A stretch of DNA of 59,985 nt, the filler included. It is 9 parts of 9 records of this genome, joined end to end, with 100 filler letters (N's around TTAATTAATTAA, not from the genome) between each part and the next. Parts side by side here need not be neighbours in the genome. Positions count along the whole stretch, not along the records: positions 20,404 to 26,053 come from SRR31156797_52072; 8 more parts are not named here. One strand, 5' to 3'. How positions within the stretch are numbered: the first letter of the stretch is position 1; each line of letters begins with the position of its first letter. Of this stretch, positions 1 through 54,156 are shown piece after piece. The translations under genes and the position numbers were made by a program. Below the pieces are notes generated by a model. It did not search any database. It saw only the letters and a list, made by a program, of their open reading frames with translations, and was not told the origin of the DNA.

Positions 1-230
1 AGATTTCGCTTCGATCCCCTAATTTTTAAATAGGCTCTTAGCAGCTCAGAAAATCAAGAAAAATAATGGAAGATTTTATCCGAATTCAAGAATAAAAATT
101 CCTCAAAACAATCCCAATATATTCATTTTTTCGACATGACATAAAATGTAAAAATTTTCGTTAATTTGTCATGCAATTCTAAGAATTCACTAAAAATTCA
201 CTAAAAGTTAAAGCGTATAACGAAACTGAA

Positions 231-382
231 GTTTGAAAAAGCCACACCTCGGGTGACCGGGGGCCGGAAAGTCTTCAGGATCTTGGATCTGTCTTTAACT
301 TTAACAGGAATGAAGCAGGGCAAAAAGACCCGCCATCCAAAAATATTAAAGAAGACAGAGCAAGACAGCCGGACTACCAAAT
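231..382 (+). promoter_or_regulatory. c-di-GMP-I (GEMM-I) riboswitch aptamer with extended P3
   Basis: P1 GTTTG(231-235)/CAAAT(378-382); P2 CCTCGG-GTGA-CCGGGG with GNRA loop; CGGAAA junction; P3 GG-ATCTTG...CAAGAC-AG-CC receptor then GGAC-TACC; lies upstream of a PEP-CTERM gene. Confidence 0.8.
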
Positions 383-430
383 CTTTGAAAATTTTTTTTT
401 AATTTTAATTTTTAAAGTTTGGAGATGGAA

Positions 431-1156: not shown

Positions 1157-1233
1157 AACGTTTGTTGCGTCACCACAGGTTATGGCGGCCTGGGGTGGTA
1201 TGAATTGATATTTAAAGAATAAGGATTAGAAAA

Positions 1234-2637: not shown

Positions 2638-2660
2638 TTCCAATTATTTGTAGTATAAAG

Positions 2661-2695
2661 CAGGCCCGGTCTCTTATGGCCGGGCCTGTTTTTTT
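2661..2695 (+). terminator. Rho-independent terminator
   Basis: CAGGCCCGGT...GCCGGGCCTG stem followed by T7. Confidence 0.85.
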
Positions 2696-2891
2696 AAAGG
2701 GCTGGGGTGGATTTCACAGATGAGGATTGAAGCTTTTCGCATTGCGCCCTAATGAAAATCTAAGAAAGTGCTCATTTTCTGCTAAACAATAAATAACCAT
2801 ACTGTGATATCTACAGATTTCATTTTTTGAATATTATAATTTGAACAAGTGGGAATATACTCTTCGGCCGGTAAAGTAAAAGGATTGAATT

Positions 2892-3722
2892 ATGATTTGT
2901 CACATAGTTGTAATGTTTGTCATGGTCTCTGGCATTGCTTTGTTTTCAGGGTGTAGTCCACTTCAAAACAAAGGGGTGGTGATTAACCCGGGGGATCAGG
3001 TTAAGGTGAATTATACCTGCGTTATCCCGGATAAAGGCGTGGTGGATACGACCCTGTCTTCTGTTGCTGGTGATGAAAATATCGCTAAATCAAAAGCGTT
3101 TATAAAATTTGCTGAGTATCAACCCCTTAAAGTGATGGCTGTACCAACGGACAAAGGTTCTTCTAATGGGCTTAAGGCCCTTGATAAAGAAATATTAAAT
3201 CAGATTGCACAGCAGGTGACCGGAAAAAACGTAGGCCAAACCTATGACATGGTCCTTGTATCGGAAACACCCCAAGGGCTTGAGAATGTAATTCGGTACC
3301 GCGTTATTGACAGGGTTAAAAAAATCAAAAAAGCGAATACGGTATCCCGTAAACAATATCTGTTTGATCAAAAAAAAGAGCCCGAGGTGGGGGACGTTCT
3401 TTACGACAATGGTGTGCCTTCTGTAAAAATAGTTGCTGTGGATGACAAGGAAGTAACACTTGAGAAGGTTCTTAATAAAGATGGCCCCACATATTGGGAA
3501 GTCGAATTTGGTGTCTGTCAGTTGGATGATTTGGGGAATGGGTTTGTTCAGGTGACAGTGAATACGCAAATCGGCCGGCTTGTACGCCGCGGTCAGGTTA
3601 TCGGCAGGGTGTCAGAAATTACGGACAAAAGCGTGGTCATGGATTTTGGACATCCTTTTGCCGGATATCCCCTGGAATGCAAGGTTCAGATTCTGGATGA
3701 AACCCCAAAGGAAGACCAATGA
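2892..3722 (+). CDS. Lipoprotein FKBP-type (SlyD-like) peptidyl-prolyl isomerase
   Basis: Lipobox LFSGC; GDQVKVNY at the N-terminus and MDFGHPFAGYPL at the C-terminus (SlyD DxNHPLAG-like). Confidence 0.75.
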   Translation: MICHIVVMFVMVSGIALFSGCSPLQNKGVVINPGDQVKVNYTCVIPDKGVVDTTLSSVAGDENIAKSKAFIKFAEYQPLKVMAVPTDKGSSNGLKALDKEILNQIAQQVTGKNVGQTYDMVLVSETPQGLENVIRYRVIDRVKKIKKANTVSRKQYLFDQKKEPEVGDVLYDNGVPSVKIVAVDDKEVTLEKVLNKDGPTYWEVEFGVCQLDDLGNGFVQVTVNTQIGRLVRRGQVIGRVSEITDKSVVMDFGHPFAGYPLECKVQILDETPKEDQ

Positions 3723-5008
3723 TTTGTAAAACCATTTTGCATGCAGGCTGCGGGCTTTTCGGGTTTGTTATAATGGCCGGTCTTTTTTCATGCACCAGCG
3801 TATCAAATACACCGGGGCCGGAATATCCCGACTCGGCCGGCATATCTGCAGATATGGATACGATTTCAGCTCATCAGGACAATGCACCGTCAGAGCATTC
3901 ACAACAGATTGATGCTATACGTAAAGCAGTCCGGGAAGCCAAGGCAGCAGGTAAGTCCTCGGTGGATATTAATCTTGATGAAATTATCGGCCTTGAAGAA
4001 ATTGCCGGCGTGGTCCAGGCCGGGGATCTGGTGACCGTGACATGTGCCGGGGATTTTGACGGAACCCCGGTGCCTGTGGAGCCAGGCACTACCCTTGATG
4101 TGGTAGCCGGCACCAGCTCTGATATCCCCGGTCTTGCCCGTGCTGTTCTTGGTATGAAAATCAAGGAGCAGAAGTCAGAAACTATTGTTCCGGAACAGGC
4201 GTTTGGCAAATATGATCCTTCAAGAATTAAGGGATTTTCATCTGTGCGTACAATGCCTGTCATACTTTCAATGGAGACGGCAGCCTATAAAAAAAGATAC
4301 AAAGCCTTGCCTGCTGAAGGTGATCTTGTACAGATCACTCCCTATTTTAAATCCCGGGTGATTGATGTGCAGGATCAAACCGTGACCCTTGAAAACCTGG
4401 CCCAAAATGGATTTTCAGATAAAACCCGGCTTGGTACAACCACCATTTCAACAGATGGCGAAAAAATTACCATCCGTCTGGCGCCGATTAAAGGCGCACT
4501 TTTTGAAGTGGGCGGGAAAAAAGGACGGGTGGCCAAAGTCGAAGAAAACCGGTTCTGGGTGGATTTCAACCATCCGTTGGCCGGCAAAACCCTTCACCTG
4601 GACATAGAAGTGAAAGGCCTTATAAAAAAGTCTGAACTTGAAGGCATGGCCCTTGACTGGATTGAAGACCATGATTTCGCTATTCATGTGGCTGAAAAAA
4701 GAAAAAAAATTTGTGTGCTGGTCTTATATGCAAATGGGTGTCAATGGTGCAAAAAGATGTTGGAAAGTACCTTTGAAGACCCGCGGATCAGAATGTTCAA
4801 GGATGACTTTATCTGGGCGAAAGTCAATTCCGGTATGCAAGAAGAGATAAAGCAGCGCTACCACCAGGACGGGTTTCCTTTGACCGTGGTGCTGGATGAC
4901 CATGGCAATGTCATCAAGAAGATATCCGGATTCAGGAATGCTGAACAACTGAGATTTGAGCTGAAAAAAATACTGAACACAACCTCACTGAGTAAAGCTG
5001 GAAATTGA
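3719..5008 (+). CDS. Lipoprotein FKBP-type PPIase fused to a C-terminal thioredoxin-like domain
   Basis: Lipobox LFSC; IPGL..A..GM, PEQAFG, VDFNHPLAGKTL; CQWC in a Trx fold with GFP cis-Pro motif. Confidence 0.8.
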   Translation: MICKTILHAGCGLFGFVIMAGLFSCTSVSNTPGPEYPDSAGISADMDTISAHQDNAPSEHSQQIDAIRKAVREAKAAGKSSVDINLDEIIGLEEIAGVVQAGDLVTVTCAGDFDGTPVPVEPGTTLDVVAGTSSDIPGLARAVLGMKIKEQKSETIVPEQAFGKYDPSRIKGFSSVRTMPVILSMETAAYKKRYKALPAEGDLVQITPYFKSRVIDVQDQTVTLENLAQNGFSDKTRLGTTTISTDGEKITIRLAPIKGALFEVGGKKGRVAKVEENRFWVDFNHPLAGKTLHLDIEVKGLIKKSELEGMALDWIEDHDFAIHVAEKRKKICVLVLYANGCQWCKKMLESTFEDPRIRMFKDDFIWAKVNSGMQEEIKQRYHQDGFPLTVVLDDHGNVIKKISGFRNAEQLRFELKKILNTTSLSKAGN

Positions 5009-5966
5009 TGCGATTTTTGTTTGTGCGTTCTACTTGTTTGAAAGACAGCGTTGTTTTTGGGCTGACGGCTGCGGTTGCTTTTGTAAGCCTGCTTTGGGGA
5101 ACCCCGGTGCAGGCAGTCCAGGAAAAGGTGCTGACCTTTGATATTAACGCCTTTTATATTGAGGGCAACACTGTACTGGAAAAAGATGTTTTGACCATGC
5201 AGATCAAGCATTTTATCGGCCCGGGTAAAACCTCTAAGGATGTGGAAGCAGCCCGGGATAGTCTGGAGCGGTTCTACCATGAGTTGGGATATCCGACTGT
5301 GCTGGTGAATATTCCCGAGCAGACGGTATCCGACGGCATTGTTAAATTTCAGGTGATCGAAAGCAAGATTAAGCGTGTGTGGGTGGAAGGAAATAAATAC
5401 TTCACCATGGCGCACATTAAAAAAAAATTGCCATCTGTGGCACCGGGCAAAATTTTATACCTTCCGGATGTAAGAAAGGATCTGGCCCGGGTAAACCAGA
5501 CCCCTGATCTTAAGGTTTCTCCTCTTTTAATTCCAGGCAAAGAACTTGGTACCATTAATGTAGGCCTGAACGTGGAAGATTCATTACCTTTGCACGGCAG
5601 TCTGGAATTGAATAACAGAAGTACCCATGAAACTACGGATCTGAGGCTGAACGGCGCATTTCGATATGATAACCTCTGGCAGAAAGGCCATTCCATAGGC
5701 GTTCAGTTCCAGGTGTCTCCCCAGGATACGGACGAGGTGAAGATGGCTTCGGCCTCCTATACCATGACCACTCCCTGGAATCTGGACCATCTGCTTTTGG
5801 GATACTTTATCTGGTCCGACAGTGAGACCGCCTCGGGTGACGGGTTTGATGTCATTGGTGACGGCATGCTGGCAGGATTCAGGTACATGATGTCCCTGCC
5901 CGGTCAAGGCCGGTACAGCCACAACATTAGTTTAGGAACCGATTGGAAAGATTTTAACGAAGAGGT
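5008..5966 (+). CDS. ShlB/FhaC/HecB (TpsB) outer-membrane transporter, 3'-truncated
   Basis: POTRA motifs (IEGNTVL, YHELGY, IPEQ..DGIV), start of the beta-barrel (LELNN, YDNLWQKGH); TGATG overlap with the upstream gene; runs into the spacer. Confidence 0.85.
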
Positions 5967-6066
5967 NNNNNNNNNNNNNNNNNNNNNNNNNNNNNNNNNN
6001 NNNNNNNNNNTTAATTAATTAANNNNNNNNNNNNNNNNNNNNNNNNNNNNNNNNNNNNNNNNNNNN
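5967..6066. other. Artificial contig spacer (others at 11665-11764, 20304-20403, 26054-26153, 31550-31649, 38002-38101, 43380-43479, 54057-54156)
   Basis: N44-TTAATTAATTAA-N44 appears eight times; composition and gene content change abruptly across spacers. Confidence 0.98.
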
Positions 6067-11664: not shown

Positions 11665-11799
11665 NNNNNNNNNNNNNNNNNNNNNNNNNNNNNNNNNNNN
11701 NNNNNNNNTTAATTAATTAANNNNNNNNNNNNNNNNNNNNNNNNNNNNNNNNNNNNNNNNNNNNCGGAAGAAGCCGTAAGGGTACCAGGAAGGAGGAAG

Positions 11800-19966: not shown

Positions 19967-20403
19967 TGAAACGGGTTATGCCTACCTGCCGGTCTCAAAG
20001 CCCTGATGAATGGCTTCCGGCTGGTCGGTGATAAAGGCAATGGGAAGAGCAGGAAAAAGGGGATGGGCGCATACTGGGTGGCGGCGCGTTTGTATCCGAA
20101 ATCATCAACCAGGCGGAAGAAAGGATCAAACATCAGGTTCCGTCAACGGATGTTGGTAACTTGATGAAAAAAAGGAAATAGCGCGATGCTGCAGACATGA
20201 AGGGGTGACGGTCCCGTTGCTTCAATCCGGCAGCCGCAGGCCCCCTTGCCGAAATTAAGAAGAATTCTGGCGCAAAACTCGTTAATGGGTATGGCGTGTC
20301 ATTNNNNNNNNNNNNNNNNNNNNNNNNNNNNNNNNNNNNNNNNNNNNTTAATTAATTAANNNNNNNNNNNNNNNNNNNNNNNNNNNNNNNNNNNNNNNNN
20401 NNN

Positions 20404-20729
20404 ATAATGCCGTAAGCATGAGTCCTGGAAATCTGGATCTCATCTTTCAGATACTTACTGAAGGAATCAGTACGAGAATAAAATCCTTGCCAATTCTGGT
20501 ATAGGAAGAACAAATCAAGCATTGCACCGGTAGAAGCACGGTCGATATCAGACAGGCGCCTCTTCACCCGTTTGCAAATGGAGTCAAAGGCGATGGGTTT
20601 CCCATCTTCAAGACTGAAATAGTCCTTATACATCTTGCTCTTTGCAGATTCTGTATTAGGAATTTTTTCCACATTCACACTTTTCTTCTGCACAGCTTTC
20701 AATGCTGCCGCTTTTAAATCTTTAGCCAT
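20404..20729 (-). CDS. ParA partner protein, 3'-truncated, resembling Borrelia PF49 / chlamydial pGP6-D partition proteins
   Basis: Overlaps the parA stop; SFSKYLKDEIQISRTHAY helix-turn-helix-like motif; no ParB GxxR CTPase motif in the visible part. Confidence 0.5.
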
Positions 20730-21495
20730 CATCTTCCACCTTGAGCAATTCACCTATTACACATTGATATTCAAGATATGCTCTCATATCCTCTGTTAGC
20801 CGACTCATTGGATTACTATAAGTTTTACTCACTTCAACAGACCGATGGATAACTGTGTCACTGAGATAATCGGTGTAGCCTTGTTGCATCGCAAAAAGGA
20901 AGGCTTCAGAAAGCTGCCGTCGTTCTTCAAAGAATGTAGGAAGGATTAAAATCCTCTCAATGTCATGATTAATATACTTCTGAGCTTTCCTAACCTTCTC
21001 AATTGACTCAAATGAGATGTCTAAAGATTCTACAGGCCAGGATTCCATCAGAGTTGGTATGAGGATGTATTCAGACGCTACCATCGCTGAACGAGTCATC
21101 AAACCCGTGTTTGGCTGAGTATCAAAAACAATGTATTCGTATTGTTCCTGGATTGGCTCAATCAAATCATTGAGGATGAAAAGTGGATTGTTTTCATCGG
21201 CCAACTCCTTTTCAATGGATTGCAAACGAAGCTGTGACTGAATAAAATCGAAATTCTCAAAAGGGGTGCGGATAGCTTCTTTGATATCAATAGAACCTAA
21301 AAGCACCTGTCTGATTGTGTCTTCCCAATCGAGTGTTGGTTCTTCAGGTGTCAGGTGTTTAGTGGCTGCAGCCTGAGGATCAAGATCGATAAGAAGAACT
21401 TTATTCCCCTGCTCTGCCAATATTGAAGAAATTGAAAGAGCAGATGTTGTCTTAGCAACCCCACCCTTTGCGGAGTGAATTGTGATTGTTTTCAT
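20722..21495 (-). CDS. parA: ParA/Soj family partition ATPase
   Basis: KGGVAKTT, IDLDPQ, FDTQP; GGAGG RBS. Confidence 0.93.
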   Translation of the reverse strand: MKTITIHSAKGGVAKTTSALSISSILAEQGNKVLLIDLDPQAAATKHLTPEEPTLDWEDTIRQVLLGSIDIKEAIRTPFENFDFIQSQLRLQSIEKELADENNPLFILNDLIEPIQEQYEYIVFDTQPNTGLMTRSAMVASEYILIPTLMESWPVESLDISFESIEKVRKAQKYINHDIERILILPTFFEERRQLSEAFLFAMQQGYTDYLSDTVIHRSVEVSKTYSNPMSRLTEDMRAYLEYQCVIGELLKVEDDG

Positions 21496-21595
21496 ACTTG
21501 GATTACCTCCATGTATGAAATTCTACTGTGTTAAAAATTCTATGGGAGCCCTAAAGAGTTCTGTATTTGACAATTCTAAAAGCATAGTTCTATGC

Positions 21596-21838
21596 ATGAA
21601 GAAAACATTTAAAGAATACATAGATGAGAAAATGGGAGATGAGCTTATGCAAACCTTCTCTCTCGAAGAATTGCAGAAAGAGTGGGAGATTACACTCTCT
21701 GACCTCTTCTTCTGCCTCTCCAGCCTAAATAAATATCACCTCAAGAAACATCCAGACTTCGACTGGCATATCGTCCTCGTGAATAAAGTCAAAGCGATGG
21801 TTATTAAAGAGAGGGAGAAAGATAAGAAGTCCCGATGA
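21596..21838 (+). CDS. Small hypothetical protein
   Basis: Open frame downstream of TTGACA (21567); start uncertain. Confidence 0.45.
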   Translation: MKKTFKEYIDEKMGDELMQTFSLEELQKEWEITLSDLFFCLSSLNKYHLKKHPDFDWHIVLVNKVKAMVIKEREKDKKSR

Positions 21839-21908
21839 TAGGACAGATTTATTTTGAAAATATTCAAGGAAACTGCAACCTTTCTGCATATTTAATAAAG
21901 ATAAAGGT

Positions 21909-22020
21909 GAGTTTCAAGATGAGAGATGAAGTTTTCTGATCTTGGAACTCCGTCCTGCCCTTGCTGAAACTTCAATTTTCATACCGGCAAGGGTGGGCTT
22001 TTATTTCAAAAAACGGAGTT
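21909..22020 (+). promoter_or_regulatory. Structured leader / putative attenuator of the rep gene
   Basis: Hairpin 21909-21950; terminator-like hairpin 21952-21998 plus TTTTATTT; AACTCCGT (21946-21953) is complementary to the RBS ACGGAGTT (22013-22020). Confidence 0.5.
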
Positions 22021-22024
22021 AAAT

Positions 22025-23242
22025 ATGTATGACTATTTCCAACAGATAAAATCAATCAACAAGATTTATAAGCCGAATACGGCAACCTTCCTCATGCTTC
22101 TTATTGATAAACACAAATATTGGGCCTCACAACCTGAAAGATTCTACTCTCTCACAAATCGCAGATTTACTGGTCACTTCTATGTATCAAGGCCAACTAT
22201 TGAAAAAGATATTTGTATGAAGAGAGACGCTCAGAAAACAGCTGAGAAGGAATTAGAAGCGGATGGGATTATTACTATCACCCCAGTCCCAGGAAAAGCT
22301 GCATGGTACAAGATAAACCAGCAGGCCTTCATTGATAGAATTGAAGACTTTCATATAAATGAAGACTGTAACCCAGAAAAAGAGTTCGGCTATCCTTTTG
22401 ATGAGACAGAAGAATATGAAGAATGGGTGGGACCTGAAGACTGCAAAGTAACAGCTGGGTCAATGAACAAACAGGGGTGCTCCTATGAAGAAAACCAAGC
22501 CACTACCCCCCATATAAATGACGGGGATGCCCCTGAAGTTTCTGCACCAAATAAGAATGGATCACTAAACCTAAAGAATAAGAATAAAGTAAGTAACGAA
22601 ACTTACTTTTTTGAAGCAACTGAAGCAGTTGATGAAGAATTAGACTGCATTAAAAATACACAAGATTCGTGCATTAAAGAAAACTCTAGCACCAATGCCC
22701 CGCCGCGCTCCGCGCAAAATGGCACTGATTTTGATGATGCTGTCCGAATAATTGAAAAATATAATGAGGCAATGGAGGTCAACTTCAAAATAGGTGAGGC
22801 TGAATTAAACAATGTTGCAGAGCATCTGGATGAATTGAAGTCAATAGAGCAGTGTCTTAATCCTAGAATCCTTGAGAAAGTGTGGTCTCAGTATAGTGAC
22901 GATTACATCAAGAATAATATTCCCAATAAACGGATATCAGCGTTCATCAAGACAAAGCTGCTTGATAAGCTACTTCAACATAAATCAAGATTGATTGCGG
23001 AAGTAAATATCGAGATTGACCAAAAATTAGATTATATATTCAGAAAATATAGCCAACAGATTTCTGACAAGGTAAACTCCCTTGGATATTCAATAAAGTA
23101 TGGTTCACTTGAACCAATTGATAATTCAGAGAATTTTACACAGAAAAATCAGAGAGAAAAAAGACTTAACCTCTACCACAACTACATCAAGCCACTGCTC
23201 CCCAAAAAAGAAAAGCACGACATGATGATTTTGGAGGTATAA
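22025..23242 (+). CDS. Putative replication initiator with N-terminal winged HTH
   Basis: FLMLLID...FYVSRPTIEKDI.M....K.A.KELEADGII..... WYKIN pattern of phage/plasmid initiators; low-complexity central linker; next to parA. Confidence 0.6.
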   Translation: MYDYFQQIKSINKIYKPNTATFLMLLIDKHKYWASQPERFYSLTNRRFTGHFYVSRPTIEKDICMKRDAQKTAEKELEADGIITITPVPGKAAWYKINQQAFIDRIEDFHINEDCNPEKEFGYPFDETEEYEEWVGPEDCKVTAGSMNKQGCSYEENQATTPHINDGDAPEVSAPNKNGSLNLKNKNKVSNETYFFEATEAVDEELDCIKNTQDSCIKENSSTNAPPRSAQNGTDFDDAVRIIEKYNEAMEVNFKIGEAELNNVAEHLDELKSIEQCLNPRILEKVWSQYSDDYIKNNIPNKRISAFIKTKLLDKLLQHKSRLIAEVNIEIDQKLDYIFRKYSQQISDKVNSLGYSIKYGSLEPIDNSENFTQKNQREKRLNLYHNYIKPLLPKKEKHDMMILEV

Positions 23243-23243
23243 C

Positions 23244-23465
23244 ATGGATTTCCTTATAGCATCTGCTCAGCTAGTCTTCGAAGGCTCTACTGACACTCAA
23301 ATCTTTCTCATATCAGAGAGGACGAAGAAATTTCTCATTTCATTTTCTGGCTTTCTAGGTTCTACAAGCGATAATGTTGAAAATTTTCGATGTTCTGAAA
23401 TAGACACCTACACTGGAGCGAATGTCTCTCAGATTGTTAAAACTACTATGAAGAGGAGTGAGTAG
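23244..23465 (+). CDS. Hypothetical protein
   Basis: GGAGG RBS; starts immediately after the rep stop. Confidence 0.5.
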   Translation: MDFLIASAQLVFEGSTDTQIFLISERTKKFLISFSGFLGSTSDNVENFRCSEIDTYTGANVSQIVKTTMKRSE

Positions 23466-23574
23466 AATGAAACGAATGAACATCATTCATTCAGAAGATT
23501 TGAAATAACACCTCAGCTTAAGCAGTTGATGGTTGATTGGATGTTTTCAGCGGATGAGATTCTTATCCTGGATT

Positions 23575-23607
23575 AAAAAATTATGGCTCCCGAAGTGGGA
23601 GCCATAA
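23575..23607 (-). terminator. Intrinsic terminator between convergent genes
   Basis: TTATGGCTCCC-ACTTC-GGGAGCCATAA-TTTTTT on the minus strand. Confidence 0.8.
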
Positions 23608-23609
23608 AG

Positions 23610-24503
23610 CTATACAGCCTTGGGTACAACCATTGAAGCAAATCTATACTTCGGATCATTCAAAAACTGATAGGGATGATATCCCTTCTTTTCACGAACC
23701 GGGTTTTCTTTCTTTACCGATGACGGTGTATAAATCCAGCTCTTAGGAAATTGAGTTTTCCCAGTTGCAAGGTAGGCCTCGCGCTTTGCCATTTTTGCCG
23801 CTTCACAGAACATATGTTCAGTATTGCTGAAATTCATACCAGTCAGAGACATCAAAAGCTGTACCTTATTCTTCCAATTATCACGAGGCAGAAGAGCCAA
23901 CCCTTTCCTTGCCCCTGTGTTAAAAGGACACCATGAGTTGGGATCAATCTGATCGGGATAGAGAGCTGAAAGGTCTTTGGCAATCTCACTCCCAAGGAAT
24001 ATCTGTCTCTTTCCATGGGTATCTTTATAGAACCCAGCAATCAGCTCAGCAGCTTCTTCAATGGTGATGCTATTAAAGGAAGGGAAAGCACGATAAAGCT
24101 TCTCAACAACATCAAATGCAGTTGTACTAAGGAAGGAGGAAATTGATTGGCCCTTCTTCAGATAGATCTGGTATGGCATCCTTCCACCGGGTTTAATCCC
24201 TTCGTTCGTCACCTTTACATAGTCAACATACCAGTCACCAGTCATCTGGGGGAAGAAGGTCCTGAGGGAATAGAACGACCTGAAGAAGACAGTGTAGAAG
24301 ATGACGGAAAAGAGGTCCATCCCATGAACGAATGCGAACAGACTTTTTGTACCATAATCATCATTACGGTCAAGACAGGTGAATTTTGTCTCATTCAAAA
24401 CACGGTTGGAACTCCAGGGCCAGGGAAGACCTGCTTCCTTTTTAGCCTGAATTCTATTCCGTTCTTCAACAAACCACAGGAAATCACTAATTGTCTTTTT
24501 CAT
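23610..24503 (-). CDS. aGPT-Pplase1 / 5hmdU DNA kinase helical-domain family protein (DNA base hypermodification)
   Basis: FLWFVEERNRI..KKEAG.P.PWS...VL...KFTC.DR.DD.GT signature; F.G.EIA.DL, N.GA.KGL and EH.FCE.AK motifs; GGAGG RBS before MKKTIS. Confidence 0.75.
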   Translation of the reverse strand: MKKTISDFLWFVEERNRIQAKKEAGLPWPWSSNRVLNETKFTCLDRNDDYGTKSLFAFVHGMDLFSVIFYTVFFRSFYSLRTFFPQMTGDWYVDYVKVTNEGIKPGGRMPYQIYLKKGQSISSFLSTTAFDVVEKLYRAFPSFNSITIEEAAELIAGFYKDTHGKRQIFLGSEIAKDLSALYPDQIDPNSWCPFNTGARKGLALLPRDNWKNKVQLLMSLTGMNFSNTEHMFCEAAKMAKREAYLATGKTQFPKSWIYTPSSVKKENPVREKKGYHPYQFLNDPKYRFASMVVPKAV

Positions 24504-24605
24504 ATTATCCTCCAGGATATATATTGTCTTGTTATTATCAATCTGCACGCCCTGAGGCATGCAAATCCTTAGTTTTATATCTGCATCAACATCGATATAA
24601 ATGCC

Positions 24606-25166
24606 CTAGTTAAAGCAGTAGATATTCTCGTATTTCTTATTGAATGCACCCGTATACTCAAGCCTCTTGTCTAGCATATATGCCGAAATGACAAAGAGCA
24701 TGTCATCATGGGTGTTATGGGGGCCGACAATAACTCTAAGTGCGAGCTTGTCAGAGTAGTCTTCATCTACTAACCATGACCGGCCTCCAGAACTAGAAAT
24801 GGTTTCTTCAATAGTTATGTCATCAGGATAGAAGTGCATCATCTTCTCACGAAGATTATAGATTCCGTTTTCAGCACATCTCTTTTTGGCATGCGGTCCT
24901 ATATCAAACAAACCCTGACAAATTGTTTCCAGAACCTGCTTATCAGTCCTGATAAGACTGTTATCAGGCTTGGGATCAAACCGAATCATCTTCTCTTCAG
25001 GCTTGGTGTCAAAGACTGTTTTTACTTCAGCATTGGGCACTTCAACCTTTTTCAGAGGTACTTTAGCCCTGACAACTTTCTTCTTGAGTCTGAGAGCATA
25101 ACCGCATTCACCACAGAACTTAAAATCATCGCTTACCTTGCTCCCACATTCAGTACAAAACTTCAT
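24606..25166 (-). CDS. Zinc-ribbon protein with C-terminal DUF4258/RelE-like domain
   Basis: FCTECG...KFCGECG; then HAKKRC.E.GI ... LRVIV ... LFVISAY. Confidence 0.6.
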   Translation of the reverse strand: MKFCTECGSKVSDDFKFCGECGYALRLKKKVVRAKVPLKKVEVPNAEVKTVFDTKPEEKMIRFDPKPDNSLIRTDKQVLETICQGLFDIGPHAKKRCAENGIYNLREKMMHFYPDDITIEETISSSGGRSWLVDEDYSDKLALRVIVGPHNTHDDMLFVISAYMLDKRLEYTGAFNKKYENIYCFN

Positions 25167-25204
25167 ACAACAACCTCCCTGTTTATCAACTAATTCTTCT
25201 TATT

Positions 25205-25224
25205 GCCCCCCGAAGGGGGCTTTG
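25205..25224 (-). repeat. Intergenic cUUCGg hairpin, copy 1
   Basis: CAAAGCCCCCTTCGGGGGG directly after a stop codon. Confidence 0.75.
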
Positions 25225-25227
25225 CTG

Positions 25228-25611
25228 TTACAACCACTCCCACCCTTCAACAGGCAAGAGAGAAGCATAAATGCCCTTTTCTCTCTCAATTCCTTTGTCT
25301 TTGAGGAATGTATCGGGATTGGTCCGAATGACAGTGGGATTCTTACCATCCACAATAATCATGAACCCGTTCTTGTCTTTGCAGACATAATATTCTGCAT
25401 AGTCGTCTTTACGCTTAGGCTGATACCATTCCAGCACTGTAACTTTCTTGCCGGTCTTAATATTCCTCATCGTTCGATGAGCAATCCGGTCGTTCATCGG
25501 TATCAAACTTATCTCGACCGAATCAGTCTCCGACAGCTGTACAATCCCGGGGATTCCTTTCCGCGTCATAACACGAGCCATTGCTTCCATCATTCTTCTT
25601 TCATCAGTCAT
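25228..25611 (-). CDS. Hypothetical protein
   Basis: GGAGG RBS; 127 aa; bounded by the repeated hairpins. Confidence 0.7.
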   Translation of the reverse strand: MTDERRMMEAMARVMTRKGIPGIVQLSETDSVEISLIPMNDRIAHRTMRNIKTGKKVTVLEWYQPKRKDDYAEYYVCKDKNGFMIIVDGKNPTVIRTNPDTFLKDKGIEREKGIYASLLPVEGWEWL

Positions 25612-25624
25612 TATTTACCTCCAT

Positions 25625-25643
25625 CCCCCCGAAGGGGGCTTTG
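25625..25643 (-). repeat. Intergenic cUUCGg hairpin, copy 2
   Basis: Identical 19-mer CAAAGCCCCCTTCGGGGGG after a stop codon. Confidence 0.75.
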
Positions 25644-25644
25644 A

Positions 25645-26034
25645 TTACACCATCAGGTCAATGTTTTTGCACATGTCCATGAGCTCTTCGAATGTGAGTA
25701 CATCGTTATCATTGGCAACACGCTTGATATCATCCAAAGTAATGCTTTTGTTTTTTCTGTAGATGTCCATGATGATTTCATAGGGATCGTTTTTTACTCT
25801 CTCTTCCACTGTTATGCCCATATCTTCACAGAGATCTACAATTTCCTTAGTAGTCCGGGATTCATCCTGCTGTGAGAGACGTACCCGTTCAATGTCGTCC
25901 ATTGTCAGTTTGCCATTCTTGAAGTAGGTCTCAAAGATGTCAAAACAGACTTCGGGTCCAGACTCACAACCAGCAAGCAACATATCCTCGCATTGCTCTC
26001 TCAGGATGATTGTTGCCTTGTTAAAGTTTTTCAT
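25645..26034 (-). CDS. Acidic protein with two sigma70 region 1.1-like repeats (possibly 5'-truncated)
   Basis: KNGKLTMDDI...EIVDLCEDMGITVEE and KNKSITLDDI...ELMDMCKNIDLMV; frame is open to the contig edge. Confidence 0.55.
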   Translation of the reverse strand: MKNFNKATIILREQCEDMLLAGCESGPEVCFDIFETYFKNGKLTMDDIERVRLSQQDESRTTKEIVDLCEDMGITVEERVKNDPYEIIMDIYRKNKSITLDDIKRVANDNDVLTFEELMDMCKNIDLMV

Positions 26035-26153
26035 TCCGCTTGCTGCGGAGTAGNNNNNNNNNNNNNNNNNNNNNNNNNNNNNNNNNNNNNNNNNNNNTTA
26101 ATTAATTAANNNNNNNNNNNNNNNNNNNNNNNNNNNNNNNNNNNNNNNNNNNN

Positions 26154-31499: not shown

Positions 31500-31649
31500 C
31501 CCCTGTGGTAACCGCAACAGAAGTGTTGTTAATTCAAAAAAAACGAAAANNNNNNNNNNNNNNNNNNNNNNNNNNNNNNNNNNNNNNNNNNNNTTAATTA
31601 ATTAANNNNNNNNNNNNNNNNNNNNNNNNNNNNNNNNNNNNNNNNNNNN

Positions 31650-38001: not shown

Positions 38002-38101
38002 NNNNNNNNNNNNNNNNNNNNNNNNNNNNNNNNNNNNNNNNNNNNTTAATTAATTAANNNNNNNNNNNNNNNNNNNNNNNNNNNNNNNNNNNNNNNNNNN
38101 N

Positions 38102-38320
38102 CTCAGTATTCCACAAATATTCTTCGGTTTGATGAGAGGTAGAATTCATTGGAAAGACATTATCGGCTACATCGGTGTACCACCACTTATAAGTATAGCC
38201 TTCAACTTCGGTAACTTCGAACGAGTAAGTTGTATTTACGGGAATAGTGTCCTGGGCATGCACAAAAAGCACACACCACAATAATGGTAACAACAACACT
38301 ATTTTTAAATTCTTACTCAA
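38102..38320 (-). CDS. Secreted Ig-like domain protein, 3'-truncated
   Basis: Signal peptide ending VHA-Q; YSFEV....GYTYKW motif shared with neighbours. Confidence 0.65.
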
Positions 38321-38537
38321 TCTATTCTTTCCCCATTATTAAATCATAATTCATCTTTGGACACGCTTCTTCCACATCGACAAATTAATCCATTCCTCTC
38401 CATGCCTTCTTTTCCGAAGGTTTTTCAGGCCAGTTAAAGGTAGCCCAAACCGTTGCCCGCATCCGCCCAACAACGGATGGGGTGTTTCTTCATCTGCAAA
38501 AAGCAACTTCAGTTTTTATACCACTTTCAAATTGGTA

Positions 38538-39272
38538 TTACTGAAATTGTATTACTGGTTTTGCTCTTACCGTAATTGTACGTTCCACATCGGCAGTTGG
38601 ATCGGCATTTATTACCGAGCTATCCGACGTTTCGGCACTAATTAAAGTAATTTCAAAATCTAAACCAGTAGCTCCTTTATTTTCCCACGAGTCGGTAACT
38701 GCAAAATCAATCTGCTTATCGGCAGCATCGTTTACAATGGTTAACTCAGGATTCCCCTGATCGGCTAAAACGGTTCCATCCAGGTCGATAAAATCGCCAT
38801 CGGGGTTTTTCACCGTTATGTTTGCCGATGCCAGATTGGCATCTCCGGCATAGGTAATACGAAACAGACTTTCGCTACTTGGTGGCACCGAACCTTCTCC
38901 ACCCGTTAAATCGGAACAAGTTTCCGTACTTGGGAAAGCTGCTGCAAAAATTAAATCACCAGGAGCAAGAATTTTCATGTCCTGCGTAATTGCTTCGCTC
39001 AAACAGCCATTTCCATCCAGTACTTGTACCGAAACAGTATAATCACCAACAGGGCCATCCCACACAATAGTTGCGGTATTGCCAGTTATGGCGCTAAGAT
39101 CGGTGCTGGTACCACTTGCAGGTGTAACAGCCCATGTGTAAGCGGCCCCGGTTTCCTCACCAACATTCATTTGTATGGTGTAGGTTTTACTGGCCCCTTG
39201 TGTAATACTATTCTGGCTCCATCCGCAATAAGCGGCCAGCACCAGAATTGTTATAAGCAGTAATTGCTTCAT
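38538..39272 (-). CDS. Secreted two-domain Ig/PKD-like protein
   Basis: Bacteroidota signal peptide (WS-Q); YTWAV, W.G..GDY.V.V...D.NGC; C-terminal TITVRAKPVIQF. Confidence 0.75.
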   Translation of the reverse strand: MKQLLLITILVLAAYCGWSQNSITQGASKTYTIQMNVGEETGAAYTWAVTPASGTSTDLSAITGNTATIVWDGPVGDYTVSVQVLDGNGCLSEAITQDMKILAPGDLIFAAAFPSTETCSDLTGGEGSVPPSSESLFRITYAGDANLASANITVKNPDGDFIDLDGTVLADQGNPELTIVNDAADKQIDFAVTDSWENKGATGLDFEITLISAETSDSSVINADPTADVERTITVRAKPVIQFQ

Positions 39273-39969
39273 AGTTCAAATTATATTTCCTTCTTAACTC
39301 TTCAGTAAACTCAATTTCAGGCAAGGCAAAAATTGTGCGTGTATGCGTTGCGTTGCTTAAATCAGGAATCGATGCATTTTTTACATCGGTAACCTGTGTT
39401 ACTGCAACAACATAATCGGTATTTAATGTAGGATCAAGTGTTAAGTCAATTTCTTCAATAGTTAACACCTGGTTGTTGTGTTGTACCAATGTTGAGTGAA
39501 TAATTCCATTAATGGTATACTCCACTGTCATTGGAAAATACACAGCTGCCAAGGCATTACCACTGTTATCGTTTATGGCAAATGGAAGCTCAAAACCATT
39601 GTCCGTTTTATTAAAACACTCGGTACTTGCTGTTATATCAAAATCAAATGTTCGATTGTTAGGTTGAACTTGCACAGCCAAAGCTTTTTTGTTTGAACAA
39701 CCATCAGGGTCTGATTCATTTACCGTGAGGTAATATAGCCCTTCCATATTCCACAATATAACAACATCTGATAAACCCGGATCGGTTATAAATTCATACT
39801 CTACCGTATTCGAACCTTGTTCAACCTCCCAGGCATATGTATTACCAGCATTAAAATCAACCTTGTAATTCAATTGAGTACCTTCGTAAATAACATACGT
39901 TTCCTGGGCTGCCACAAATTGGGCAGCCAGGAAAAATATGCTCATTATGAAAGTTGCTTTGAATCGCAT
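39208..39969 (-). CDS. Secreted two-domain Ig/PKD-like protein
   Basis: Signal peptide (AA-Q); GNTYAWEV, W...GLYYL.V.E...DGC; TRTIFALPEIEF. Confidence 0.75.
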   Translation of the reverse strand: MRFKATFIMSIFFLAAQFVAAQETYVIYEGTQLNYKVDFNAGNTYAWEVEQGSNTVEYEFITDPGLSDVVILWNMEGLYYLTVNESDPDGCSNKKALAVQVQPNNRTFDFDITASTECFNKTDNGFELPFAINDNSGNALAAVYFPMTVEYTINGIIHSTLVQHNNQVLTIEEIDLTLDPTLNTDYVVAVTQVTDVKNASIPDLSNATHTRTIFALPEIEFTEELRRKYNLNYEAITAYNNSGAGRLLRMEPE

Positions 39970-39974
39970 TTGAA

Positions 39975-40784
39975 TTAATCGAAAGAAATTATAGTAGTAT
40001 GAGGCCTTGATACATTAGTGATTACCTCATATGTTCCATCACCATTATCCGATACTCCATTTCCTGCTACTCCATTCGAAATGGTATTTGTTGATGTAAA
40101 ATCGGCACCAGTACCATCAGTATCTGAATTATCAAGAACAGTGGAAGTAACAACGATCTGAATGTCAACAAATTCTTCATCACTTACCTCAACTAAAGTA
40201 CCTGTTAATGTAGCATTTGAAGAAACAGTAATTGCTGCAGGATCAAATTGAGATAGGACATTCGCAAAATTAAACTCATATCCATTACTTGCATCATTTA
40301 GACCTGTAGGAGTAACTCGATAAGTAATAGTTGATGTTCCATGATTATACTGAGGATCTCCACTTCCATCAATTGATACTACAGGGGCTGCATCATAACA
40401 ACTAGTTGTGACACCAGTAATAGCTAAAGAGAAATCGCTTTCACTAATAGTAACTTTAAGTACTTTCTCATTTACACAACCACTATTAGTTTCACTAACT
40501 CGAACATAATAAACCTCATTTACGGCTACCTCTGCCGCAACCCATTGAATTGAAACAGAATTTCCTGTTCCTGTCACGATTGCATTACCTGCAGCTACCG
40601 CATCAGTTGTAAAATCAGATTGCCATACACTCCACGAATAAGTACTCCCGTGGTCATCTGCTTCATTAACTGTATAAACATGAGTCGCACCAGGGGCAGG
40701 ATTCTGCCCTGTACTTTGCGCAAAAACATTTCCACCAATTGCGGTAAATAATACCGCCGTTAACAAAAAGACTAATTTTTTCAT
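39975..40784 (-). CDS. Secreted two-domain Ig/PKD-like protein
   Basis: Signal peptide (VFA-Q); GSTYSWSV, YYVRVSE...GC; C-terminal VSRPHTTIISFD. Confidence 0.78.
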   Translation of the reverse strand: MKKLVFLLTAVLFTAIGGNVFAQSTGQNPAPGATHVYTVNEADDHGSTYSWSVWQSDFTTDAVAAGNAIVTGTGNSVSIQWVAAEVAVNEVYYVRVSETNSGCVNEKVLKVTISESDFSLAITGVTTSCYDAAPVVSIDGSGDPQYNHGTSTITYRVTPTGLNDASNGYEFNFANVLSQFDPAAITVSSNATLTGTLVEVSDEEFVDIQIVVTSTVLDNSDTDGTGADFTSTNTISNGVAGNGVSDNGDGTYEVITNVSRPHTTIISFD

Positions 40785-40831
40785 AATGATAAAATTTAAA
40801 TGTTATTAAAAATTTGTTTTAAAATGTATTA

Positions 40832-43379
40832 TTAATTCGTTGTTATAGGTCCGGTATCAGGAACAGGCAGCAAAGTAAACGTTGCATTCCAGTCATCCGA
40901 ATCTATATCTTGTATATTATAATCTAATTCTTCTGCCGATGTAATTTCCAGTTCAACTGTAAGTTGGTCGAATCGGCTACCTGTAACTTCCATTGTAATT
41001 TCCACAAAACCAGCACCGTTTGTACTGGGTATATTTGTTACTTCATATGTTCCACTTAATATACCGGAAGATGCCTGCACATTAGCAATAGAAGCACCAG
41101 CATCAGGAGTAAGAACAAAGGCTATTTTCCAGTTTGGATTCCAGCTGCTTTGCCCGCTTACCATTTCAACTCTAAATGTGATTATGGAAGTAGTATCCAC
41201 TTCATCGCCATTTATTTCGCCACTTGCCGCATTACATGTTGCTGCGGGACTAATTAATGAAACATCGAAAGTATTGTTAACGGTAATGGTTCCATTTGCC
41301 TCTACTGTTCCGCATCCACCGGTGAGCGTAACCGTATAATTGAATGTTCCAATTTGCGTTGGAGTCCCGCTGATGCTTACCTCATTTGAATTCCAATTGC
41401 CTGTGACACCATTGGGTAAACCGCTAAAAGTAGCACTGGTTGCACCAGTTGTGGCATAAGTTATGGTTGTAATTGGTGTTACCACATTTAGTGTTTGATT
41501 GTCGGTTCCAGCAGCAGAAGTAAGGTTTATAGTATTCGTTGGCAAAACCGTCACCTCCCAAACACCAACCGAGCTGGTAAAACTTGTACTACAAGTACCA
41601 TCGCTGGCCTGACGGCGGTAGTAAGTGGTTTGCGTTAAAGCTGCTGTTGGAGTATAAGTTGCTGTGTTGCTAGCAACATCAGTTACACCGCTTCCGAAAG
41701 TTGGATCGGTACTCGATTGCCACTGGTATGTTATTGTTTCATCGCCGCCACTGGCATCGCTTACACTTCCTATGGTTGCGGTTGGTGTGGTATTGTAACA
41801 AATGGTTTCGCCGGTGGTTTCAATTTCTCCGGCATCGAAAACTCCTTGTACCGTTACTGTCCAACTACCGGCAGATTGCACAAAGGCAGCTTCGCAGGTA
41901 TTGTCTTTTGCCCAACGCGTATAAGTTGCCGAAGCCGTTAATACTGGAGGATCGTAAGTAGGCGAGTTACTGTTTAAAATTGGATTTCCATTCACCTGCC
42001 ATTCGTAGGTAATTGTGCCATCTCCACCGCTGGCATCAGTAGTGCTGCCAATTACTGTAGGATTGCCTCCGCTGCATATGGTTTGGCCTGTGCCTGATAT
42101 CTCCCCACTTGAAAAAGCAGGATAAACTGTCATCCCAATTTTATTGGAGGTAGCCGGGCTTCCGGTAGCACATGAAATATCGGAAGTTAATATACAGGAA
42201 ACCGTGTCACCATCAGCAGGATTATAGGAGTAGGTATTGCTGTTTGCCCCTACATCGGAGCCATTAACCTGCCACTGGTAAACTGGTGAAGAACCACCGT
42301 TGACAGGTGCTGCGGTATAAGTAACTGTTGTACCATTGCAAACAGTATCGTTTCCGCTAATAGTAACAGAAACCGGGGTTCCATCAGCCACTGTAACTGT
42401 AACCGGATAATCGACACTTGTACATGCCGGGTAGTACGTAATTACCCTTAAAGTTGCATTGTATATGCCGGCAGCGACACTGTATGGAACATTTATTAAA
42501 AAATTTCCAGGGGCAGGATCGACCGTACTGTTTTGTGGAGAACTAAAGCCAGCGGCAACTGCAGCTGCGTCGAAAGTTAAAATCCACTGTGCAGGCGATC
42601 CTGTTACCGCAGTGTAAGGCAGCACGGCTGTTGTTTCAGTCTGGCAAACAGTGGGATTTGTACCAAGCGTTATAGATAAAGTTGGATTTACTACTATTGA
42701 CCTTAAGGTTGAATATTCAGCACTGCAACCTCCGCTTTGCACCAGAACACGGAAGTCCCATGTTCCGCCTGATGATGGAGTTTCGGAATAAGTAATACTT
42801 CCGGCATTACCCACATCTTCCCAGCTCCCACTATCTAATCTTCTTTCCCACCGAACTACTGTTCCTGTATAATCTTTTAAAGTAAGCAGAGGTATTACAT
42901 TTCCCAGACAAATGGGATCATAATGAGCTGGTTCAACCCAGCCTCCCTGTGTTGTTGGGTCTACAACTACATCGGTACTCCCAATGGCACTTGTACAGCC
43001 ATTTACAGTAACGGTTACAGAATAGGTTCCCCCATTGCCAACCCAGGTTGTTGGTACAGTAGGATTTTGTTGTGATGAACTAAAGCCATTTGGTCCTGTC
43101 CAGGCATAAGTTGCACCGGTAACGCTTGGCGTTGTTAGTTCAATATTATCCCCCAAACATACAGGGCTATTGCTTGATGCTGTTGGGGTTGCTGGTATAG
43201 GATTTACGGTAATTGTTATTTGATCGGTGTTTTCACATCCGTTTGCGTCTGTTCCTGTTACCGTATAGCCTGTGGTGGCCGCCGGATTAAATGCTACTCC
43301 ATCAGTAACACCGTTGTCCCAGGTATAAGTTGAGGCGCCACTACCCGTTAGCGTAATGCTTTCGCCTTCGCATATCTCA
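40832..43379 (-). CDS. Large Thr/Gly-rich adhesin with tandem Ig-like repeats, 5'-truncated
   Basis: Repeated C.G..., YAWTGPNGF, YQWQ and TYYRR modules; frame continues to the contig edge; ends LPVPDTGPITTN. Confidence 0.85.
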
Positions 43380-43479
43380 NNNNNNNNNNNNNNNNNNNNN
43401 NNNNNNNNNNNNNNNNNNNNNNNTTAATTAATTAANNNNNNNNNNNNNNNNNNNNNNNNNNNNNNNNNNNNNNNNNNNN

Positions 43480-45053: not shown

Positions 45054-45082
45054 TTGACATTTCCCTGTTCTAGGACTATAAT
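45054..45082 (+). promoter_or_regulatory. Consensus sigma70 promoter
   Basis: TTGACA(45054-59)-N17-TATAAT(45077-82). Confidence 0.8.
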
Positions 45083-45122
45083 CACGTTATTTGGTTTTTG
45101 TCCTGAACGAGGGAGATCATCC

Positions 45123-45521
45123 ATGCCGCGAACGCCGGACGGCCTGACGTTCCGCCAGGAACGTTTCTGCCGGGCCTATGTCGAAATGGGAAGTGCCCGC
45201 ACCGCCGCGCTGGAAGCCCGCTACGCGCCGCAATGGGCGGCCAATCACGGCTACCGACTGCTGAAACAGCCACGTATCCGCCGCCGCATTTCGAAGATTC
45301 AGGCCGAGATGGCCGAGCAGGCCTGCCAAAACACCAACGTGCTTTTGGGCAAGTTGGAGGCGGTCTATACCCGGGCGCTGGCGGATCATCATTTCTACGC
45401 GGCGGCGCGCGCCGTCGATCTGCAGGCGAAATTGATGGCGCGCCTCGACCGCCCGGAGGCGGAACAAACCGATGAAACGCAGGCCCCGGACAGCGGCGCC
45501 GCCATCGTGCCAATTCGTTGA
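45123..45521 (+). CDS. Terminase small subunit-like protein (orphan)
   Basis: LT.RQERFC.AY...G.A..AA..A.Y....A...GYRLL..P.I...I HTH pattern; GAGGGAG RBS. Confidence 0.75.
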   Translation: MPRTPDGLTFRQERFCRAYVEMGSARTAALEARYAPQWAANHGYRLLKQPRIRRRISKIQAEMAEQACQNTNVLLGKLEAVYTRALADHHFYAAARAVDLQAKLMARLDRPEAEQTDETQAPDSGAAIVPIR

Positions 45522-54056: not shown

Positions 54057-54156
54057 NNNNNNNNNNNNNNNNNNNNNNNNNNNNNNNNNNNNNNNNNNNN
54101 TTAATTAATTAANNNNNNNNNNNNNNNNNNNNNNNNNNNNNNNNNNNNNNNNNNNN

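Follow-up and report, generated by a model that had tools for sequence, protein, structure and literature searches.

What could a protein of a thymidine-hypermodification family do when it is encoded beside a replication gene and with no recognisable partner? The question is raised by a gene at positions 23610..24503 of a 59,985-base stretch of DNA, hereafter the window, which encodes a 297-amino-acid (aa) protein of the Pfam family PF18723 (HMUDK_hel, formerly aGPT-Pplase clade 1). The window is made of nine contigs, with GC contents from 0.405 to 0.622, joined by artificial spacers (N44 + TTAATTAATTAA + N44). The contig of the PF18723 gene spans 20404..26053 (5,650 bp, GC 0.405), and the visible surroundings of the gene amount to flanks of 3.2 and 1.5 kb. 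We found that the gene is a genuine, intact member of PF18723 and an orphan within these 5.65 kb. An accessory role in conflicts between phages and their hosts or plasmids is the explanation that we tentatively favour.

The PF18723 gene and its relatives

The gene and its signals are as follows:

23610..24503, minus strand: stand-alone PF18723 gene (HMUDK_hel / aGPT-Pplase clade 1), 297 aa, stop codon included, identified by Pfam, hhalign, homologues and an AlphaFold2 (AF2) model
24509..24513, minus strand: Shine-Dalgarno sequence GGAGG, 6 nt upstream of the ATG at 24503
23581..23607, minus strand: intrinsic-terminator-like hairpin with an 11-bp stem (6 G-C pairs) and a T-run, directly after the stop codon

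A mechanical open reading frame (ORF) is longer (23610..24560, minus strand, 316 aa). The 297-aa model is the right one because the starts of homologues agree with ATG 24503 (an equivalent start is found in 8/8 close homologues) and because the GGAGG lies 6 nt upstream. The coordinates and the protein length proposed in an initial annotation, made from the sequence alone, are confirmed by both kinds of evidence.

Among about 5.8 billion clustered proteins, eight close homologues were found, at 55-73% identity. When 1.84 billion representatives were searched with a profile, the relatives numbered 808 at E<=1e-3, 80 at E<=1e-10 and 14 at E<=1e-30. The search against the PF18723 profile that the initial annotation had suggested gave a match above the gathering cut-off (48 bits versus 25; E 1.4e-12), which covers just profile positions 3-85 of 281. 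The Pfam match being partial, membership over the whole length is concluded from two other comparisons: PF18723 is matched by 83/83 sequences of the family alignment (A2; best E 4.6e-61), and hhalign pairs this alignment with the PF18723 protein of phage M6 across columns 7-270 (probability 99.9, E 3.6e-35). Together with the fold matches described below, these results bear out the assignment to the thymidine-hypermodification helical family. The protein also matches a PHROG of unknown function (phrog_2396, E 2.9e-15), and searches of NCBIfam and PADLOC with it gave zero matches. Members of PF18723 carry the NCBI name 'putative DNA base hypermodification protein'. The aGPT-Pplases are said, in papers that cite the work, to have been defined by Iyer et al. 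in 2013.

The initial annotation had pointed out an N-terminal signature and a C-terminal EH..CE..K motif. Both are present in the window protein, and they turned out to be the near-invariant core of the family when 170 relatives were aligned to the A2 profile. The window protein retains every near-invariant residue, including E229-H230-x-x-C233-E234-x-x-K237. Conservation of individual positions, in counts of relatives, is as follows:

R15: 160/160
R46: 159/161
D49: 161/161
D177: 161/163
E229: 138/159, with Q in 18
H230: 121/159, with N in 20
C233: 155/159
E234: 156/158
K237: 149/158

In a maximum-likelihood tree quickly built from 86 family members, without the ten plasmid-locus proteins discussed below, the window protein groups with the 8 close homologues in a clade of their own (SH-aLRT 98). 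This clade is nested in an 18-member clade (100), itself in a 45-member clade (98). The M6 protein, gp55, and its counterparts in Aeromonas phage TSW001 and in a distant genomic locus (L001) are placed elsewhere. The compact clade of the window protein is found only in metagenome-derived protein sets and is essentially absent from isolate phage and plasmid records.

Comparison with the kinase and the transferase

The Pfam name HMUDK_hel traces to fused forms such as SP10 gp186 (PMC5889632 Table 3; also a match in BFVD, a collection of predicted viral structures). Reading the family label as that of a kinase is not borne out here. Neither PF18748 nor any other kinase family was detected in the window protein at E<=0.1 with Pfam, and NCBIfam likewise gave none; its sole Walker-A-like string is not conserved in homologues. 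PF18724, the family of the amino-acid:DNA transferases (AADT, or aGPT-Pplase2), gave no Pfam match at E<=0.1. With no kinase domain, the protein cannot itself be a 5-hydroxymethyldeoxyuridine (5-hmdU) DNA kinase, nor is it a PF18724 transferase. PF18723 is, rather, the glycosylase-like, helix-hairpin-helix 'helical' protein found together with, or fused to, the 5-hmdU DNA kinases of thymidine-hypermodifying phages.

Phage M6 offers a useful reference. Its kinase, gp54, is a separate 187-aa PF18748 P-loop ORF, in another frame than the PF18723 gene, which is a distinct neighbour of about 323 aa and corresponds to gp55 by gene order. A 489-aa mechanical ORF of M6 was considered as a kinase-helical fusion and ruled out, given that the kinase ORF uses the other frame and that the PF18723 protein starts at a later ATG. 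According to Lee et al. 2021 (PMC8989533), M6 lysate reactions lacking gp52, gp53 and gp55 still yielded the glycinylated product, the kinase gp54 plus gp51 being enough. Thus gp55 is reported to be dispensable for phosphorylation and for glycine transfer, and the stand-alone PF18723 protein is therefore left with no assigned activity. Fusion to a P-loop domain does occur in the family: in one relative (P0106), PF18723 is joined to an AAA_28 domain.

The stand-alone PF18723 proteins of phages (M6 gp55, TSW001, phiW-14 and phiRSL1) belong to the same family over their whole length, show TM values of about 0.6 and, like the window protein, have no kinase domain; M6 gp55 also shares the EH..CE..K motif. 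The window protein is, however, shorter (297 aa versus about 323-386 aa) and stands in a well-supported clade of the tree apart from M6 gp55 and TSW001. With the 5-hmdU DNA kinases, whether PF18748 stands alone (M6 gp54) or is fused (SP10 gp186), the window protein shares the helical, non-kinase part (query TM 0.60 to SP10 in BFVD), whereas the P-loop domain, PF18748 and the conserved Walker A are missing. With the AADT proteins (M6 gp51, ViI gp247 and SH-Ab 15599 Pplase2) it shares a related predicted fold and the Glu-(Thr/His)-x-x-Cys spacing, but a PF18724 match is absent and profile comparison is non-significant.

Predicted fold and candidate active site

An AF2 model computed from a 9-sequence alignment was unusable (pLDDT 50) and was replaced by a model from the 83-sequence alignment, which is all-helical (pLDDT 91.5, pTM 0.87) and disordered after about residue 260. 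A Foldseek search of BFVD with this model gave 12 matches at E<=1e-3, with query TM values mostly between 0.53 and 0.62 and a lowest value of 0.47. They include the SP10 5-hmdU DNA kinase, the helical-domain proteins of phiW-14 and phiRSL1, and AADT-domain proteins, which occupy ranks 1 and 10 with a probability of 1.0. No structure in the PDB matched at E<=1e-3; the best were the helix-hairpin-helix (HhH) DNA glycosylases Endonuclease III, AlkA and AGOG (E 0.35-3). A sequence search of the PDB found no solved relative, and its best match (E 0.042) was an unrelated coiled coil.

The transferases provide a possible key to the conserved motif. In the clade-2 enzymes M6 gp51 and ViI gp247 a Cys and a neighbouring Glu are essential, according to PMC8989533. 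For SH-Ab 15599 Pplase2, PMC13458397 assigns the required divalent metal to D25, E222 and T223 and catalysis to C226. The spacing of E229-H230-x-x-C233 is that of E222-T223-x-x-C226, and in weak, non-significant local alignments it falls on the 'ETVLC' stretch of M6 gp51. The E/H/C motif of the window protein may thus be equivalent to the metal and catalytic Cys site of the transferases, and what mainly speaks for this is the set of fold matches to AADT-domain proteins.

An orphan within the visible contig

A canonical thymidine-hypermodification pathway comprises a thymidylate-synthase-like (TS-like) deoxyuridine monophosphate (dUMP) hydroxymethylase, a PF18748 kinase and a PF18724 transferase, and no component of it is present on the visible 5,650-bp contig. 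In the contig's 9 scanned ORFs we detected no TS-like, PF18748, PF18724, TIR, Nmad or MazG protein, nor is there a conserved Walker A save the deviant one of ParA. The statement of the initial annotation that no partner is adjacent is therefore true of this contig. In M6 and TSW001, in contrast, the PF18723 genes adjoin a PF18748 kinase, a PF18724 transferase and a TS-like hydroxymethylase.

The other genes and elements of the contig are the following:

20304..20403, no strand: spacer at the left contig edge (N44 + 12 A/T bases + N44)
20404..20753, minus strand: ORF of which the contig end leaves just the 5' part; it overlaps the end of parA and stands where parB would be expected, and a ParB role is suggested by this position only
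20722..21495, minus strand: ParA partition ATPase, 257 aa (AAA_31, E 3.2e-43; phrog_164, E 4.4e-47)
22025..23242, plus strand: 405-aa Rep-like protein, whose gene converges with that of the PF18723 protein (phrog_428, E 1.6e-5; phrog_9773, E 2e-5)
24606..25166, minus strand: zinc-ribbon protein, 186 aa, separated by a 102-nt gap from the PF18723 gene downstream (Zn_Ribbon_1, E 7.9e-8); its C-terminal portion has no assignment
25206..25224, no strand: 19-nt G/C hairpin repeat, copy 1 (CCCCC-GAA-GGGGG core), just downstream of the 127-aa ORF
25228..25611, minus strand: 127-aa ORF with no family match
25625..25643, no strand: 19-nt G/C hairpin repeat, copy 2, exact, just downstream of the 129-aa ORF
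25645..26034, minus strand: 129-aa ORF with no family match above threshold, its start 19 bp from the contig end
26054..26153, no strand: spacer at the right contig edge

The gene can be described as a separately terminated accessory gene beside rep; the fragment that carries it is plasmid-like, with ParA and Rep, and possibly belongs to a phage-plasmid. The initial annotation had placed it on a stably maintained par/rep replicon, which overstates what a 5.65-kb fragment shows. ParA is solid; its best plasmid relatives, at about 32% identity, include those of Borrelia/Borreliella (cp32-type), Clostridium and Bacillus. The assignment of Rep, separated from parA by a 529-bp gap, is weak: its PHROG matches, to Rep/O-like families, have E values of about 1e-5, its look-alikes in the Atlas (0.94-0.95) are mostly viral clusters plus HTH_36 clusters, and it matches none of 72,556 plasmid and 50,697 phage records. 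No iterons stood out in a repeat search of the contig. The ORF at 20404..20753 had no match among the family libraries scanned, and the zinc-ribbon protein yielded nothing usable in the Atlas. The contig DNA gave zero matches in plasmid and phage collections.

As for the orphan state, the locus is locally partner-free, but on a 5.65-kb fragment; the circularity test, which looks for terminal overlap of the contig, found none. The 9 homologues of Rep lie on contigs of, for example, 25, 42.5, 109 and 337 kb. With Rep relatives on contigs of up to 337 kb, the element in the window may far exceed 5.65 kb, and partners may lie off the contig.

Homologues of the neighbours give some indication of how the gene is associated with its replicon. 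The closest Rep relative (74%) and the sole zinc-ribbon homologue (72%) are both on contigs of 25,061 bp, and none of the 8 close PF18723 homologues is listed on a contig of that size. The PF18723 gene thus seems to be variable cargo. One Rep homologue (39% identity) and the PF18723 homologue P0002 (73%) carry the same Sphaerochaetaceae metagenome-assembled genome (MAG) label and are both on 4,559-bp contigs. Another close homologue of the PF18723 protein is on a 16,381-bp contig, a size absent among the contigs of Rep homologues, and 5/8 are on contigs below 2 kb, which are uninformative.

The PF18723 gene and the three ORFs upstream of it (186, 127 and 129 aa) are co-oriented with short gaps. 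The two 19-nt hairpins in this stretch are terminator-like on the plus strand only, and the T-tract rule failed on the genes' own strand; they may be repeated stem-loop or terminator elements that part transcription units.

Distribution and context of the family

The initial annotation tied the family to lytic phages, but its range is wider than that: Lee et al. 2018 (PMC5889632) already reported homologues from eubacterial genomes, and tblastn searches found the family in 20 plasmid records from bacteria and archaea. These records were found with the protein of L001, a locus at 24% identity in a Pirellulaceae MAG. The first of two genome scans had found no relative, and the second detected this one distant locus. 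L001 belongs to an integrative element that also encodes an HNH endonuclease, a primase-like protein (DUF3854/DUF5906) and an integrase; the ±10 kb around it revealed no partner enzyme. The window protein itself gave 0 matches in tblastn against the 72,556 plasmid records and 1 weak match among the 50,697 phage records, namely that of Aeromonas phage TSW001 (29.8% identity over 41% of the query). The relative P0010 gave 1 weak record among the plasmids.

In the plasmid records the proteins are annotated as 'nucleotide kinase domain-containing protein' or 'putative DNA base hypermodification protein'. We inspected 10 of the 20 loci; the gene tables of PLSDB are incomplete, and the neighbour counts are thus lower bounds:

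MazG-like nucleoside triphosphate (NTP) pyrophosphohydrolase: at least 5/10 loci
ImmA/IrrE and helix-turn-helix (HTH) pair: at least 5/10 loci
thymidylate-synthase homologue: at least 3/10 loci
TIR-domain protein: at least 3/10 loci
dTMP kinase: at least 1/10 loci
radical-SAM protein: at least 1/10 loci
none of these: 2/10 loci (Flagellatimonas, and Erythrobacter between dnaQ and dnaE)

In 8/10 loci PF18723 adjoins TS-like, MazG-like, TIR, dTMP-kinase or radical-SAM genes, and several loci have CBASS, SIR2, restriction or other defence genes nearby. The proteins of these loci carry QN..CE (10/10), while the window protein, M6 gp55 and L001 carry EH..CE. The neighbours in the window, compared by phmmer with the partner proteins of 4 plasmid loci, gave noise only.

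A similar association is found in a system that is listed as validated. According to PMC13092281, the Escherichia coli defence system DS-4 combines a homologue of thymidylate synthase with an 'adenylate kinase', PF18723, TIR and Nmad2. In the same work (DefensePredictor), '5-hydroxymethyluracil kinase' is among the domains newly validated in defence and aGPT-Pplase is among the predicted, unvalidated ones. DS-4 and the plasmid cassettes resemble the window in that PF18723 is encoded by a cell or plasmid in a conflict context, not by a lytic phage. They differ in that the plasmid-cassette proteins (282-382 aa) are of the QN..CE type and have partners in 8/10 loci, whereas the window protein is of the EH..CE type and has no recognisable partner.

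Several arrangements among the plasmid loci deserve mention in their own right:

(i). A cassette recurs with the order (acyl carrier protein)-HTH-ImmA/IrrE-thymidylate-synthase homologue-PF18723-MazG-like NTP pyrophosphohydrolase-(holo-ACP synthase/PPTase). It is seen in Rhizobium rosettiformans p3 (L005), Sinorhizobium fredii pSfreNXT3a (L009) and a plasmid of Allocoleopsis PCC 7113 (L010), and in partial form in L011 and L013. Its spread covers Alphaproteobacteria, Cyanobacteria, Actinomycetota and haloarchaea, and all its PF18723 proteins are QN..CE.

(ii). TIR genes adjoin PF18723 in Gloeothece pP742404 (L004), a Natronomonas plasmid (L006) and a Parabacteroides plasmid (L007), an echo of the DS-4 architecture. 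Additional neighbours are a CBASS phospholipase in L004 and a radical-SAM gene in L007.

(iii). Zinc-ribbon-domain proteins are encoded beside or near PF18723 in L006 (5930-6817) and in the Streptomyces locus L013 (1-1296), as at 24606-25166 of the window. The zinc-ribbon protein of Natronomonas L006 has no detectable similarity to the 186-aa protein of the window.

(iv). In the megaplasmid of Erythrobacter aureus (L012, 4276-9646) the PF18723 gene is flanked by the polymerase III genes dnaQ (epsilon) and dnaE (alpha), and upstream lies a SAM methyltransferase gene; no partner enzyme is annotated in this unusual, replication-linked setting.

The remaining contigs of the window

The other 8 contigs provide no genomic context for the PF18723 gene and perhaps come from other molecules or organisms. 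The artificial spacers of the window occupy 5967-6066, 11665-11764, 20304-20403, 26054-26153, 31550-31649, 38002-38101, 43380-43479 and 54057-54156. In a Pfam scan of 44 ORFs of these 8 contigs the genes recognised were ordinary chromosomal ones, and domains of the thymidylate-synthase-like, nucleotide-kinase, transferase, TIR, Nmad or TET/JBP kinds were absent.

A few features of these contigs can be noted. On a contig of GC 0.42 (38102-43379), Pfam matched none of four successive same-strand ORFs (244, 253, 269 and 774 aa) at E<=1e-5. At 45054-45521, on a contig of GC 0.62, a terminase small-subunit domain (PF03592, E 8.6e-15) adjoins FHA-domain and CorA genes and may be a prophage edge or remnant. 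At 48908-50733, on the same contig of GC 0.62, an HhH-GPD base-excision glycosylase gene adjoins an AraC-type/6-O-methylguanine-DNA-methyltransferase (Ada-like) gene; the pair is ordinary alkylation repair, with no tie to the PF18723 gene. At 1-5966, ORFs of 245, 467 and 276 aa with no Pfam match lie upstream of a thioredoxin-like/FKBP protein.

A tentative explanation and its rivals

For the substrate, chemistry and role of the window protein we propose, with a probability of about 0.4, a solo accessory enzyme that would act on C5-substituted uracil in phage-host or plasmid conflict, and not in wholesale self-modification. The protein would bind DNA and flip out, in the manner of HhH proteins, a C5-substituted uracil (5-hmdU or a phosphorylated form), and Cys233 would then attack C6 aided by a metal held at E229/H230. 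Since the visible element is unable to make 5-hmdU, the most likely substrate would be DNA or nucleotides of foreign (phage) origin; a foreign substrate would make the gene conflict or defence cargo. Alternatively, the protein may rely on enzymes encoded elsewhere. The idea of a defence role, already put forward in the initial annotation, gains plausibility from the DS-4 precedent (PMC13092281), but in that precedent PF18723 always comes with partners.

A bolder version of the solo proposal is that small ParA/Rep replicons have enzymes of the compact clade as their main cargo and that these work unaided. With its Cys233/metal site the enzyme would act directly on invading DNA that contains 5-hmdU or is otherwise C5-modified, for instance by trapping the base covalently or rewriting it, or it would set a sparse mark without the hydroxymethylase, kinase and transferase pathway. 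We consider this version improbable. If it were true, the PF18723 family would gain a modification or defence function performed by a single protein.

Several observations weigh against the solo enzyme. The contig is a fragment, and partners possibly lie off it. The relatives in a cellular conflict context belong to another branch (QN..CE in 10/10) and have partners that are absent here. The PADLOC models match nothing on the contig. Activity has been shown for no stand-alone PF18723 protein, M6 gp55 being dispensable in the lysate reconstitution (PMC8989533). Sequence ties the proposed active site weakly to that of the transferases: hhalign comparison is not significant with M6 gp51 (E 0.035, probability 1.5) or with a 2-sequence AADT alignment (E 0.45, probability 0.1). 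One close homologue (71%) is on a 965,680-bp contig, a size that, like 16,381 bp, is absent among the contigs of Rep homologues, and the clade is therefore not plasmid-specific. Lastly, the linkage of Rep and P0002, a hint of a recurring rep-PF18723 association, is deduced from equal contig size and label only.

The main rival, which we regard as rather unlikely, is that the gene is an ordinary pathway member. The contig would be a piece of a larger temperate phage or phage-plasmid whose remainder encodes the hydroxymethylase, PF18748 and PF18724, and the protein would have an accessory role on the element's own DNA. Such a view fits an incomplete contig whose Rep has relatives on contigs of 25-337 kb, the weak PHROG matches of Rep and the zinc-ribbon protein, the mostly viral look-alikes of Rep in the Atlas, and the EH..CE motif, which is of the phage type found in M6 gp55. 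The pathway genes of ViI, moreover, bear numbers as far apart as gp67, gp160, gp226, gp243 and gp247 (PMC5889632 Table 3). In M6 and TSW001, however, PF18723 adjoins the kinase, transferase and TS-like genes or is less than 4 kb away from them, whereas the flanks in the window are unrelated. Moreover, the closest related replicon, that of the 25-kb contig, shows no PF18723 homologue, the window clade is apart from both phage examples in the tree, and phage records contributed just one weak match.

It is doubtful, too, that the gene belongs to a multi-gene defence module, either DS-4-like or linked to TIR or MazG, with its partners among the small neighbours (186, 127 and 129 aa) or past the contig end. 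The four co-oriented genes with short gaps, and a contig that ends 19 bp upstream of the first of them, speak for such a module, and both DS-4 and 8/10 plasmid loci show cellular PF18723 genes in cassettes; a zinc-ribbon protein also adjoins the PF18723 gene in the Natronomonas plasmid. Yet the neighbours in the window match no TIR, MazG, TS, Nmad or kinase family and are unlike the partner proteins of the 4 plasmid loci compared, and the identical hairpins after the 127- and 129-aa ORFs may split the stretch into transcription units. No PF18723 homologue is listed for the contig of the sole zinc-ribbon homologue, and EH..CE differs from the cassette-type motif. The remaining possibility, a function outside modification and conflict, seems very unlikely to us. 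The protein would then be a non-catalytic or housekeeping one, DNA-binding or repair-like (for example, in the recognition of oxidative 5-hydroxymethyluracil lesions), or a decaying passenger. The remote fold likeness to HhH DNA glycosylases points in this direction, as do the want of a known activity for stand-alone PF18723 proteins and the homologue on a 966-kb contig. Against it speaks an intact gene that has translation and termination signals and 8 homologues at 55-73% identity. The near-invariant Cys, Glu, Asp and Arg in 170 relatives argue for catalysis under selection, and all the contexts seen for relatives are mobile elements, phages or defence islands, with no repair operon among them.

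Significance

Print or public annotation already records the family, its occurrence in bacteria and plasmids and its part in one defence system. The present gene adds a member of a compact, metagenome-only clade that is apparently partner-free and lies beside rep. Should the full element carry the standard pathway, the gene would be an ordinary one. Among the recurrent components of thymidine-hypermodification clusters, the stand-alone PF18723 protein is the one that has no assigned activity, and yet its Cys, Glu, Asp and Arg are near-invariant; a naturally isolated copy with no visible partners is a simple construct for asking what such a protein does alone. If PF18723 indeed acts alone on 5-hmdU DNA, this would help to explain the spread of the family into plasmids, defence islands and DS-4, and the protein might become a new DNA-base tool enzyme.

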